Of a stretch of 64,000 nucleotides of DNA, positions 15,790 to 36,829 are shown piece after piece. Position numbers and translations under genes: made by a program. The notes under the pieces were generated by a model. It had not been told where the DNA came from and did not search any database. It saw only the letters and a program-made list of their open reading frames with translations. Origin of the DNA: Candidatus Cloacimonadales bacterium (GTDB lineage Bacteria > Cloacimonadota > Cloacimonadia > Cloacimonadales > DAONDQ01); the NCBI GenBank assembly GCA_963662275.1, contig OY759316.1, positions 3,232,001-3,296,000 on the forward strand, read 5' to 3'. The number at the start of each line of letters is the position of its first letter. The first letter of the stretch is position 1.

Positions 15790-16029
15790 CTGGAACATCC
15801 TTGAATCTTTTGCTTCATATTTAGAAATGGGAGGAAATGGCAAGAAAAAAAAGAGCCAAGTGACCAACTGCACATGATAAACACCTCTTAATGCTGCTTT
15901 CTTCCGAATCTGACATGGTTCGTGGGCTGCCATTGCGTTGGGCTTGGCTCATTTTGAGGAAAAATGGAGGGGTTCTTGTGTCAAGGAGAAAGTCATTTGA
16001 TCTTAAAATAGTCTGATGCTCCGTAGTAC

Positions 16030-28747: not shown

Positions 28748-28767
28748 TGTTACCTCTTCATTTTATT

Positions 28768-28937
28768 AACCCGCAGTACCGTGTATGCTTGTCACTGATG
28801 AACCTTTTTTTTAAAGTGGGCATCTACCTTATCAGCTTTACCAATCCGGCTCGAAACCGGCTTAAGTGCTACCGGAGGCTCGATTCCCTCATCAAGCGTG
28901 GTTCTTTTTACAAAACATATCACAAATACTGCAGGAG
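28768..28937 (-). ncRNA. ssrS: 6S RNA
   Basis: About 170 nt between zapA and rny, a common ssrS context; complementary ends (CCUGCAGUAUUUGUG / CACGGUACUGCGGG) with GAACC...GGUUC inner pairing and A-rich bulge. Confidence 0.8.
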
Positions 28938-28938
28938 A

Positions 28939-29223
28939 TTAAATATCATTATCCGAAATAAATGTAGAAATCAGTTTATTGAGACGGTCAATTTCCTCTT
29001 TTAGAGATACGTTCAAATCTTGCAAATCGATCAAGTGTTCAGATAAGTTCAAGGAATTAAGGATGAGCAGTTTATTCTGATCAATGATGTCATATTTATC
29101 ATTCAGTTCTTCCAATTGCTCATTTAGTGAATTGGCAATCCGAATGATTTTGTCAGGATCATCTCCACGTAATTTAAACTTTCGACCGTAAATTTCAACT
29201 TCAACTGATTTCATCAAATTCAT
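28939..29223 (-). CDS. zapA: Cell division protein ZapA
   Basis: 'VEVEIYGRKFKL', 'LLILNSLNLS'; pheT-zapB-zapA-6S-rny synteny. Confidence 0.85.
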   Translation of the reverse strand: MNLMKSVEVEIYGRKFKLRGDDPDKIIRIANSLNEQLEELNDKYDIIDQNKLLILNSLNLSEHLIDLQDLNVSLKEEIDRLNKLISTFISDNDI

Positions 29224-33891: not shown

Positions 33892-34686
33892 TTACGCCTG
33901 GTCAGGATCTATTTCTTTAGTATTCGCTTTTTTCTTGGTCGTTTGTTTCTCAACTTTCAAGGCAGCAACTGCATCTTCAGATGTATCAACCTTCACTTTT
34001 GTGGTTTTTGCCTTAACGCTGACAGATGCTGTCTCCTCTTCTGAGGTTTCGGCATCCAAAGCTATTTCATTGGCTTCAATAGCGGAAATCTGTTCCGGTG
34101 TTGGTTCCGGTTCCATTTTGGAAATGATCTTATCAATCTCTTTCTTCGGGGATATGATCATCATGAGTAAGTTCTTTTCCGCTAAAGGCTGGGAATCAAC
34201 GTCAGCAATATAGGCTAAATCTGCTGCCAATCGTTCCAGGATGGAATAACCAAGTTCCTTGTGTGCCATCTGGCGACCACGGAATTTGACTGTGAATTTT
34301 ACCTTATTATGTTGTTTCAGGAAGCGAGTTGCATTATTCTTTTTAAAGTTGTAATCATGCTCCTCGGTACTCGGTCCGAACTTGATTTCCTTCACTTGAA
34401 TTTCATGCTGTTTCTTACGGGCTTCCTTCACTTTCTTTTCTTTTTGGTAGTAGTATTTGCTAAAATCCATGATGCGGCATACAGGTGGATCAGCAGTGGG
34501 TGATATTTCGACTAGATCAAGCTCTGCTTTCTCTGCCATTTTCATTGCTTCACTGGTTTTTACAATACCAACCTGTGTTCCGTCTGCATCAATTAAACGC
34601 ACCTGATCACATGTGATCTGGCGATTTGAGCGTTCTTTTGGCACGACTTCCTTCATCTTTGCCTTGCCTTTGCGAATCCGGATTAT
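33892..34686 (-). CDS. infC: Translation initiation factor IF-3, probable ATA start, long C-terminal tail
   Basis: 'LDLVEISP..PPVCRIMD', 'VKEIKF', 'FRGRQMAH'; AAGGAGG lies 5 nt before an in-frame ATA at 34686, while the ATG at 34656 lacks a comparable SD. Confidence 0.93.
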   Translation of the reverse strand: MIRIRKGKAKMKEVVPKERSNRQITCDQVRLIDADGTQVGIVKTSEAMKMAEKAELDLVEISPTADPPVCRIMDFSKYYYQKEKKVKEARKKQHEIQVKEIKFGPSTEEHDYNFKKNNATRFLKQHNKVKFTVKFRGRQMAHKELGYSILERLAADLAYIADVDSQPLAEKNLLMMIISPKKEIDKIISKMEPEPTPEQISAIEANEIALDAETSEEETASVSVKAKTTKVKVDTSEDAVAALKVEKQTTKKKANTKEIDPDQA

Positions 34687-34715
34687 AGTGGCCTCCTTAT
34701 GGTTATCGTGAACAT

Positions 34716-34830
34716 AAAAAAAGAGCGGATAAAATATCCGCCCGCTTTATAACTAAGTACATAAATCTCAATACATAGACCTTACTAATATCATCTGAAT
34801 CGTAAGGTAGAAGCGGACAGCCTCTTTACT
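34716..34830 (-). promoter_or_regulatory. L20-leader-like attenuator upstream of infC-rpmI-rplT
   Basis: 'GUCCGCUUCUACCUUAC...GUAAGGUC...AAAGCGGGC' pairing overlaps the terminator GCGGAUA-UUU-UAUCCGC-UCUUUUUUU. Confidence 0.7.
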
Positions 34831-35830
34831 CTATAACCAACTTCGTAGACTTCTGGAAATGCGTCAAGTGAATTCAGGAAATTTAACCACGAAACACACG
34901 AAATACACGAAAACAGATATTGTAAGGTAAGGATCAACGGATCAGAATCGTCTGGCATGTCGTAGAGTAGGACTCCGTTCCTGCTTCTGCTTTCGTTCTT
35001 CGCATTTCGCACTACGTATTTCGTACTTCGTACTTCCTTAGAATCCTTAGTATAGTTTAGAGCCTGAAACTTAATTAAACATTATTACGTGTCGATTTTC
35101 GACATCAAAAACGACATGAATAGCTTGTCTTTAAAAAGAATTAATAAAGCGTATTTTTAAATATCCTGTTCTTGTATAACCCCAAACAAAAAGGAGTTAA
35201 AGTGTGAAATCTGAAAATCTCTTATCACGTTTATCAGTCTGTTTTATCGATTTCCTTATTTGCTGGTAGCTGATAATTCTGAAAAACTCCACAGGAGTGA
35301 AATCCGATAACCTGACGTGTGAACGTCAGGATAGCTATGGGAAAAGAATGATAAAACGTTTCAACCCAACGCGGGTGACACTTTTACCGGAACGCTGTTT
35401 TCAAACGGCTATGCTCTGCAACTTCAAAAAGCCTCATAAATTAAGCATTCCATTAGCAATGTAGGGGTTTGCGGAAGTAAACCCATCTGCTGAATGTTGT
35501 GATATCAGTGAAGCAAGAAAAGCAGTAAGTTCATCTAAAATCGGATGCTCTAAATCTCAACTATCTTAACAGTTGAACAGTTCTGCTTTAAAGGGGTTGG
35601 GGGGTCTCTTTCTGTTCTACATTGAGTGGCACTTTGTTGTACGATGGGATTGGTTATCCCAGAGAAATGCAGATTCCGATAATACCATTATCGAATACAA
35701 CACATTACCAATGTATGTTACAACATTGGTGGTTACTCCTTGAGCTGTGTGGAAACTCCTTAAGGTGTTGGCTTCTCTTCTAAAAAGCAACGTAAACGAA
35801 GCTGCCACGATTCCTGAAGTAATCACCACA

Positions 35831-35851
35831 CCAAAACAGCTTACAAAGCTA
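35831..35851. repeat. 21-bp direct repeat, left copy (contains AGCTT-N3-AAGCT hairpin)
   Basis: ccaaaacagcttacaaagcta; partner ccaaaacagcttataaagcta at 37523-37543. Confidence 0.85.
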
Positions 35852-35884
35852 TAGTACAGGTAAAAAGGTAAGAAACCTAAAAAA

Positions 35885-36829
35885 CTACTGGACTGCCCTG
35901 CAGAGACGGACACCCTGGACGAAGTAGCTGACGTACGGGTTGACGTAGTACCGATTCGAAACCCGACAGTCGTAGGCATCGTTGCCCCAGTAACTGCCGC
36001 GTAGCACACGGTTGGGTCCGCTAACTGCACCCTGTGGATTCGTCTGCGCATCAGAGCTATAGGTGCCATACCAGTCCCAGCACCACTCATACACGTTGCC
36101 GCTCATATCATAGATTCCCAGAGCATTGGGAGCCTTCGTACCGACAGGATGAGATGTGTCCCCGGAGTTTGGATGGTACCACGCCACGGCATTCACATCA
36201 TCGCTGCCGATGTATAGATAATCCGGTGTGGAAGTTCCGCCCCTTGCTGCAAATTCCCACTCCGCTTCCGTAGGTAACCTGTACCCATTGGCTGTCCAGT
36301 TGCTGATTGCTGCATCCCAGGTAGCGTCATTTCCAGAAGTGGGAACTGTGCCCCAAGCTGTGGGATTTGTAGAACCACTGATCGTATAGACCGGAGTAAG
36401 ACCTTCGTTCAGACTGCGCAGGTTGCAATACTTCAGGATATCATACCTGGATACATAGTACACAGGATAGTTGCTTCCTACTCCGTATGTTGTTCCAAAT
36501 CCAAATGGATCGCTATTCCATGCTCCCATCACAGCCTCCCATTCGCCCTGCGTCAGCTCATACTTGCCAATCATAAACGATGATAACGTCACGCTGTGCG
36601 TTGGCAATTCCCATTCGATTGCGCCACCGTGTGTATCACCCATGGTGAAAGTACCCCCCGGCACCAACACCATCTGCCCAGGAGTTGTACCCTGGCTAAA
36701 AGTTATATCCGTAATTTCGTTCAGATTAAATGTGGTTGTACCGTTTGTAGTGTGCACATTCAGTTGAGCCTGCGCAAATAGAAAAGAGGTAAAAAGGATA
36801 AGGCAGCTAATAAGTAATATTTTATACAT
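35885..36829 (-). CDS. Secreted FGE-sulfatase/C-type-lectin-fold protein; probable DGR target gene
   Basis: 'MVLVPGGTFTMG', 'YELTQ', 'YRLPTEAEWEFAARGG', 'DMSGNVYEWCWDWY', 'RVLRGSYW...GVRLCR'; NNC-rich 3' end. Confidence 0.9.
   Translation of the reverse strand: MYKILLISCLILFTSFLFAQAQLNVHTTNGTTTFNLNEITDITFSQGTTPGQMVLVPGGTFTMGDTHGGAIEWELPTHSVTLSSFMIGKYELTQGEWEAVMGAWNSDPFGFGTTYGVGSNYPVYYVSRYDILKYCNLRSLNEGLTPVYTISGSTNPTAWGTVPTSGNDATWDAAISNWTANGYRLPTEAEWEFAARGGTSTPDYLYIGSDDVNAVAWYHPNSGDTSHPVGTKAPNALGIYDMSGNVYEWCWDWYGTYSSDAQTNPQGAVSGPNRVLRGSYWGNDAYDCRVSNRYYVNPYVSYFVQGVRLCRAVQ

Follow-up and report, generated by a model that had tools for sequence, protein, structure and literature searches.

Probable orphaning of a DGR-written variable region in a secreted TvpA-like gene of Cloacimonadota

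Here we describe the 3′ end of P0001, a gene in a Cloacimonadota genome, as very probably the product of mutagenic retrohoming by a type-B DGR of related Cloacimonadota, the machinery of which has since gone, leaving the variable region (VR) as a fixed allele. Tested against a homologous, not the cognate, template (TR), this end appears to be a genuine DGR-written VR; the DGR origin stands because relatives of the same order have DGRs and because homologous VR ends vary specifically at template adenines. The initial annotation of this DNA had proposed an orphan DGR-type VR of a secreted gene with a C-type-lectin (CLec)/FGE fold, diversified in trans. We retain the DGR type, the secreted CLec/FGE-fold product and the orphaned state, and we drop the diversification in trans.

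The source genome (G000) is a single contig of 4,378,784 bases with 39% GC, 99.97% complete by markers. The window, that is, the whole stretch of 64,000 bases analysed, corresponds to G000:C1:3232001-3296000. Residues 52-310 of P0001, a protein of 314 residues, match the Pfam FGE-sulfatase family (E 6.6e-47), and the gene for this CLec/FGE-fold protein has the VR at its 3′ end (Table 1). The closest solved structure is that of Treponema denticola variable protein 1 (TvpA, 2y3c; E 4e-44 over residues 77-309), whereas true FGEs give a far weaker match (E about 1e-17). A lipobox is unlikely, because a sister paralog in the same genome has Ser in place of Cys9 of P0001. The protein is alone in a collection of 5.8 billion proteins, which holds no strain variants or near-identical alleles of it, the next matches being 69% identical. 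The GC content of the gene (about 0.5) is in line with that of the other FGE paralogs, which are richer in GC than the genome as a whole.

Table 1. Features of the P0001 locus, in window coordinates
Feature	Position	Strand	Basis
Gene P0001, 314 aa, secreted TvpA-like FGE/C-type-lectin-fold protein	35885..36829	minus	ORF and translation
Putative N-terminal signal peptide, aa 1-21	36767..36829	minus	By-eye reading: hydrophobic N terminus, ends AQA
Variable region, wide sense: zone homologous to the TR of the G128 DGR	35899..36022	minus	Codon-for-codon register with TR_G128
Adenine-templated (variable) codons	35915..36004	minus	17 codons that are AAC/AAT in TR_G128
GC-rich 3′ edge TCTGCAGGGCAGTCC, specific to the VR, where TR/VR homology ends; IMH-like (putative function)	35890..35904	minus	VR-end alignment
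Conserved linear flank motif TCTTACCTTTTTACC, 11 bases past the stop codon	35859..35873	minus	VR-end alignment

Several features of the surroundings were recorded. Directly upstream of P0001 (36839-37288, minus strand) lies a gene whose 149-residue product has a sorting domain for type IX secretion (Por_Secre_tail, FlgD_ig); by eye, the stretch that follows its signal peptide is similar to the N-terminal stretch of P0001 (H-x-x-N-G-T-T-T ... I-T-F). The 1.2-kb gap between P0001 and infC (34660-35858) contains no long ORF and is a mosaic of short interspersed repeats. These recur dozens of times across G000 (197 hits by blastn), and several copies are found just 3′ of other FGE paralogs. Tandem arrays of these repeats occur at G000 positions 2350630-2354363 (period 110/144), 1345300-1345512 (27-nt unit, period 62) and 2745636-2745937 (25-nt unit, period 69), and contig depth at window positions 35788-35834 is about 90x that of the P0001 gene. 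Elsewhere on the minus strand of the window, Rfam identifies a small SRP RNA (15851-15949, 56.5 bits) and a 6S RNA (28764-28940, 47.3 bits for a gathering score of 46.4).

The variable region and its homologous templates

The terminal codons quoted in the initial annotation are all present at the end of the ORF, and its description of them holds. Tyr is encoded by TAC at six of six positions (aa 280, 286, 294, 295, 299 and 302), whereas the 17 upstream Tyr codons of the same gene comprise 5 TAC and 12 TAT, the latter including aa 240, 247, 254 and 257, in agreement with the reported use of TAT just upstream. With TAC making up 162 of 699 Tyr codons (23%) in the 31 long ORFs of the window, six out of six has a p of about 1.5e-4. 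NNC codons are enriched here, again in line with the annotation: C is the third base in 22 of the final 40 codons, compared with 17% in the same 31 ORFs (binomial tail 5e-8). The GC content of the scar stretch is 0.59, compared with 0.39 genome-wide.

The VR had been placed at 35885-36020. It does lie there, with boundaries that we redrew by means of the homologous TR of a related genome, G128 (Table 1). The third base is retained in all 17 AAY-templated codons, the two AAT positions reading GAT and AAT, and the P0001 residues at these codons (NYGNDYDNYYVNYVYFV) are all reachable from AAY. Over 126 bases, mismatches between the P0001 VR and TR_G128 fall on 22 of 41 template adenines and on 16 of 85 other bases (Fisher p 1.4e-4); the VR of G128 itself differs from this TR at 25 adenines and 1 other base. 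The 16 non-adenine differences imply that the TR of G128 is homologous to the lost template but not identical with it. The P0001 VR is in codon register with the TRs of relatives, that of G128 giving the best fit, and this real TR closely resembles the one that had been predicted from the P0001 codons, with AAC at the NNC positions and the same scaffold.

A DNA search with the VR across 232 genomes gave matches in 48 of them, about 20 places spanning the 3′ end. We aligned 10 places from the fetched loci (one per genome) with the window VR and TR_G128. Among these 11 VR ends, column entropy is 1.31 at the 40 columns in which the TR has adenine (2 of them invariant) and 0.24 at the 84 others (52 invariant; Mann-Whitney p 5e-17). 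The adenine-specific variation that the initial annotation had expected is thus present, among homologs rather than among reads.

DGRs are found in relatives of the same order. In 60 relatives, short RTs of 340-380 aa are encoded at a distance of 1-2 kb from FGE genes. Fourteen loci beside such RTs were fetched, and 8 of them contain TR/VR-type repeat pairs, defined as repeats no shorter than 50 nt, with 75% or more of their mismatches at adenines of a single copy; the six loci in which no such pair was found are mostly short stretches ending at a contig edge. With the DGR RT of G128 as query, a match at E <= 1e-45 was obtained in 52 of the 232 genomes of the phylum and in 40 of the 151 high-quality ones. 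The G128 locus (L050) encodes, in order, an 823-residue FGE target with a 3′ VR, HRDC, bAvd, the RT (RVT_1) and the TR, an arrangement referred to here as a type B cassette; on the side that was examined, its neighbours are housekeeping genes and not phage genes. A 2024 survey describes the DGR RTs of Cloacimonadota as clustering together (PMC11661182), and cassettes with HRDC and Avd have been described as a minority architecture (PMC5758913). In one otherwise intact DGR of a relative (L028, G048:C1, 6255-6397), an insertion of 1 base in the VR, by comparison with its TR, makes the frame run into TAA TAG, so that the target looks frameshifted; the FGE target of another genome (G003) has one in-frame TGA.

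We consider it extremely unlikely that the codon pattern is unrelated to a DGR and arose through local composition, codon selection or gene conversion among the roughly 40 FGE paralogs of G000. That number of paralogs does make conversion conceivable, and FGE genes are GC-richer than the genome. However, the C-ending codons are position-specific and in register with real TRs, and the choice between TAC and TAT flips within 25 codons of the same gene. Over the VR, identity to the paralogs does not exceed 70%, and their mismatches show no pattern. The restriction of every templated position to residues obtainable from AAY argues in the same direction.

The missing machinery and the state of the variable region

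The genome contains 18 matches to PF00078, in frames of 412 aa (1), 459 aa (3), 465 aa (7), 444 aa (6) and 896 aa (1). One representative of each length class was domain-scanned (5 of 18): four are group II intron maturases (GIIM) and the 896-residue frame is a Cas6-RT-Cas1 fusion, the remaining 13 matches being classed on the basis of length and near-identical scores. None of four approaches, the PF00078 search, the class-representative scans, tblastn and the G128 RT query, revealed an RT of the DGR clade in G000; the last gave no match at E <= 1e-45 in either G000 or the same-genus genome G001. In tblastn searches of G000 with eight DGR RTs of relatives (E <= 10), seven matched only the group II RT copies (26-31% identity) and one the Cas1-fused RT (21%). 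Nine accessory proteins of relatives (Avd and HRDC-type) gave matches only at E >= 0.012 by tblastn against G000. None of these queries found anything in the window, consistent with the RT and Avd having been reported absent from it. Three PF22296 matches at 28-29 bits (cut-off 40 bits) were considered as bAvd candidates and rejected, all being 23S_rRNA_IVP proteins at 140-146 bits. As to the RTs that G000 does have, the fusion (G000:C1:3092718-3095408) contains Cas_Cas1 (E 3.8e-59), RVT_1 (E 3.4e-17) and CRISPR_Cas6 (E 1.3e-6) domains, and the 17 group II intron copies fall into four length classes.

A cognate TR was sought by ungapped scans of both strands, scoring as matches all identical positions and all positions at which the candidate template carries an A. 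A 114-nt adenine-tolerant scan of the 4.38-Mb genome found no TR, the best non-self hit (89/114, 31 identities) being A-rich junk; five 50-nt sub-windows of the VR found only the VR itself; and the last 120 nt of 44 FGE C termini gave 0 hits. The short-word BLASTN of the VR against the genome, suggested in the initial annotation as a way to find the TR, returned only paralogous FGE ends at 59-70% identity, which we rejected as TRs because their mismatches involve all four bases. A search of the 1.2-kb gap 3′ of P0001 for cassette remains gave no RT, Avd or HRDC hits. Nor did an exact 18-base scaffold word find a cognate TR in metagenome (15 loci), viral (0) or genome contigs (17 loci), collections from which the records of this genome itself may have been excluded. 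Of these 32 loci, 31 are chance occurrences in unrelated contexts, and the remaining one (L081, Bacteroidales) is an unrelated VR-like FGE end. Diversification in trans is thus not supported in this closed genome, in which no DGR RT, no bAvd above cut-off and, in three scans, no TR was found. It had been held that the lack of a TR or RT in the genome or its close relatives, together with a lack of adenine-specific variation among reads or homologs, would speak against a DGR-type VR; a TR and a DGR RT are missing from G000 as far as these searches go, whereas relatives of the same order have DGRs.

A plasmid or phage outside the one-contig assembly could carry the machinery, in which case the VR would be a remote target that is still active and rewritten in trans. 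The scar is pristine, with all of its third bases intact, and the 3′ edge and flank motif common to an active target are intact as well. In addition, VR ends of the P0001 type in five other genomes do not fit their resident TR cleanly, with adenine-type mismatches numbering 14 of 21 (G098), 26 of 40 (G130), 22 of 38 (G123), 17 of 31 (G127) and 25 of 45 (G136), which an unseen template would explain. Where the fetched piece included an adjacent VR (G098, G127 and G136), that VR fits the resident TR near-perfectly (26 of 27, 21 of 23 and 20 of 20 mismatches of adenine type, respectively). However, these five genomes are fragmented assemblies, and a second template may simply be missing from them. 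Against rewriting in trans stand the lack of RT, Avd and TR in the searches of a closed genome, the lack of a TR in the viral, metagenome and genome collections by the scaffold word, and the position of the only intact cassette of this type seen, that of G128, which on the side examined lies among housekeeping genes and not phage genes. A pristine scar is also what an active target would look like, so that the state of the scar alone fits both a frozen and an active VR.

Contig data bear on this point. The stretch is present in five runs from two studies, and the contigs of four were compared. Runs X1 and X3, which belong to different studies, each yield a 1024-base contig over 35801-36824 with 0 differences; such contigs hide rare variants, and the best-matching run may be the source sample, so that this identity lends weak support to a stable VR. 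In runs X4 and X5, the pieces break off at 35956 and begin again at 36074 or 36077, with a depth of about 6; the point at which they begin again lies in a conserved multi-copy stretch, and the gap is uninformative. Low-level hypervariability at present may be compatible with these contigs. Taken with the searches above, we regard rewriting in trans by an unassembled DGR as very unlikely.

Our preferred reading is therefore of a VR that is most likely frozen and no longer diversified. An AAC-rich TR would have been reverse-transcribed with random bases opposite adenines, and the resulting cDNA would have replaced the VR of the P0001 gene, leaving NNC codons at the positions that bind the ligand in a C-type-lectin fold like that of TvpA. 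The genome would then have lost the RT, Avd/HRDC and TR, and the VR would have become an ordinary, fixed allele of a secreted binding protein. P0001 probably binds a ligand through the VR surface. Orphaning may have come about by recent cassette loss or by arrival of the gene through transfer, and the VR is most likely frozen either way.

Flank elements, paralogs and origin of the gene

The end of the VR is marked by two conserved elements (Table 1). All 11 aligned VR ends carry the sequence TCTGCAGG where their homology to the TR gives out; the TR, which diverges after TCTGCA, lacks it. A few bases beyond the stop codon, 10 of these 11 ends, among them that of the active DGR of G128, are followed by the core TTACCTTTTTAC of the flank motif, which does not occur in the TR; similarity between VR flanks stops immediately past this motif. 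In G000, the motif occurs three times at up to 1 mismatch, and only the copy of P0001 follows an FGE gene.

The T-rich tract that the initial annotation had pointed out after the stop codon is located at 35859-35884. The small hairpin described alongside it exists (AGGT/ACCT, 4 bp), but its stability does not exceed chance expectation (z = -0.29; an equal or better fold in 77 of 200 shuffles). The conserved feature 3′ of P0001 is a linear motif, not a structure. As guesses at its role, we name a cis element in homing or the promoter of a cassette operon.

T-rich units of the form (T)4-5-[A/G]CC follow the stop codon in 9 of 12 confirmed Cloacimonadota DGR targets (flanks read at L021-L027, L050, L086, L089 and L090), as counted by eye. 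In these nine, two or three such units, TTTT(T)-[A/G]-CC, are present per flank at a spacing of 8-9 bases. The units may act as a common cis element or as promoter of an accessory/RT operon.

A hairpin is an element of the Bordetella phage DGR paradigm. One idea, to which we give little credence, is that the 3′ edge TCTGCAGGGCAG and the linear flank motif TCTTACCTTTTTACC together act as a sequence-specific landing pad that replaces a hairpin of this type and keeps 'orphan' VR ends rewritable. The VR ends of this genome and of at least five others, which match no resident template yet have fresh NNC codons, would then be serviced occasionally in trans by a rarely assembled, perhaps mobile, DGR acting across the gene set.

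The nearest full-length relative of P0001 is a paralog in the same genome (G000:C1:635469-636401), 71% identical in amino acid sequence overall and 75% outside the VR. Signal peptide and 3′ edge are the same in this sister paralog, the flank motif of which is degraded. Its VR has decayed, with TGG, CAA and GAA codons that are not obtainable from AAY and with C-ending codons at 9 of 32 positions. In residues common to P0001 and the sister paralog, the third base is the same at 47 of 95 fourfold sites, whereas the third bases of the P0001 VR are intact; the last rewriting of the VR thus probably took place much later than the split between the two genes and would be recent relative to it. Housekeeping DNA of G000 and G001 is 77-83% identical, and on this basis the freezing of the VR also looks younger than the split between these genomes.

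The scar is not confined to P0001. A tblastn search of G000 with the C-terminal 124 residues returned 47 segments, of which the 40 that reach the end with a G-[FLV]-[RH] anchor were analysed and the other 7 dropped. When the 32 codons before the anchor were compared with the roughly 180 upstream codons of the same gene, 11 of the 40 paralogs showed an excess of C-ending codons (Fisher p < 0.01), 6 of them at p < 0.001. The excess is strongest at G000 positions 1211909, 3952220, 1051529, 3762176 and 3646382. The adenine-tolerant scan found no TR in G000 for any of the paralogs with this excess. Several of the FGE paralogs therefore look like older or younger leftovers of the same DGR process.

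These comparisons bear on how P0001 came to be an orphan. The gene may have arrived horizontally, with a VR already written in a DGR-bearing donor (a relative from family f3), with or without a cassette, in which case the present lineage never diversified the VR; this is an orphan reading that differs from ours only in origin. A search of G001 with P0001 found no ortholog, the best match being 58% identical in amino acids and 68% in DNA over about 360 bases on a 2.6-kb contig, and G001 likewise has no DGR RT by the query above. The VR end and flank are up to 78% identical to VR ends of family f3, compared with at most 70% for the G000 paralogs over the VR. A transferred gene would also fit with the isolation of P0001 among known proteins and with its flank motif, which follows no other FGE gene in G000. 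Against this, the sister paralog in the same genome, which has the signal peptide and 3′ edge in common with P0001 as well as a degraded copy of the flank motif, suggests that the subfamily has long been resident, and the GC content of the gene is like that of the other FGE paralogs. Moreover, the G001 contig ends about 240 bases past infC, which makes synteny at the P0001 locus unreadable. We hold horizontal arrival to be possible but less likely than not.

Relation to known systems and meaning

Leftover targets of this kind were reported for T. denticola in 2016 (PMC4891356), where genomes without RT and TR contain targets that differ from the TRs of relatives mostly at adenines, read in that report as DGR loss. 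As described there, these leftovers share with P0001 a secreted protein of the TvpA-like FGE/CLec fold, a genome without RT or TR and mainly adenine differences from the TRs of relatives. P0001 differs from that account in its phylum, Cloacimonadota, in a comparison TR that comes from another family of the order and not from another strain, hence the 16 non-adenine differences, and in a signal peptide that is unlike a lipoprotein signal. A second precedent is all3226 of Nostoc PCC 7120, reported to have remnant TR-VR homology and no nearby RT (BMC Genomics 2020, PMC7517822), in a study that proposes the removal of diversification components once a variant has been selected. According to that study, all3226 is, like P0001, a CLec paralog of DGR targets with a VR-like 3′ end away from any cassette. 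However, the Nostoc genome it describes still has two DGRs, with proteins that are mostly cytosolic and in signalling, whereas the P0001 genome has none and P0001 is secreted. Searching the DGR literature for the word 'orphan' as applied to VRs returned no use of the term, which has no bearing on the concept.

The closest living counterpart is the G128 target, which has the same VR length, scaffold, codon register, VR-specific 3′ edge and flank motif as P0001. G128 retains the machinery and a near adenine-only TR/VR pair (25 versus 1), whereas P0001 has no machinery. P0001 is also a short form, lacking the Fn3_assoc and CHB_HEX_C_1 domains of the longer G128 target. TvpA shares with P0001 the FGE-type C-type-lectin fold and is, by sequence, its best solved relative; TvpA, a DGR variable protein, has a resident DGR that services it, whereas P0001 has none, and the likeness is one of sequence.

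The importance of this case is modest, as DGR leftovers have been in print for Treponema since 2016 and P0001 is a further example. DGR loss leaves a datable codon scar, by which former targets are recognisable even where RT, Avd and TR are gone, and pipelines that demand a TR/RT pair will miss such orphaned targets. Part of the large FGE/lectin paralog family of Cloacimonadota, in which 11 of 40 copies have the C-ending excess here, may derive from alleles that were written by DGRs and later fixed.
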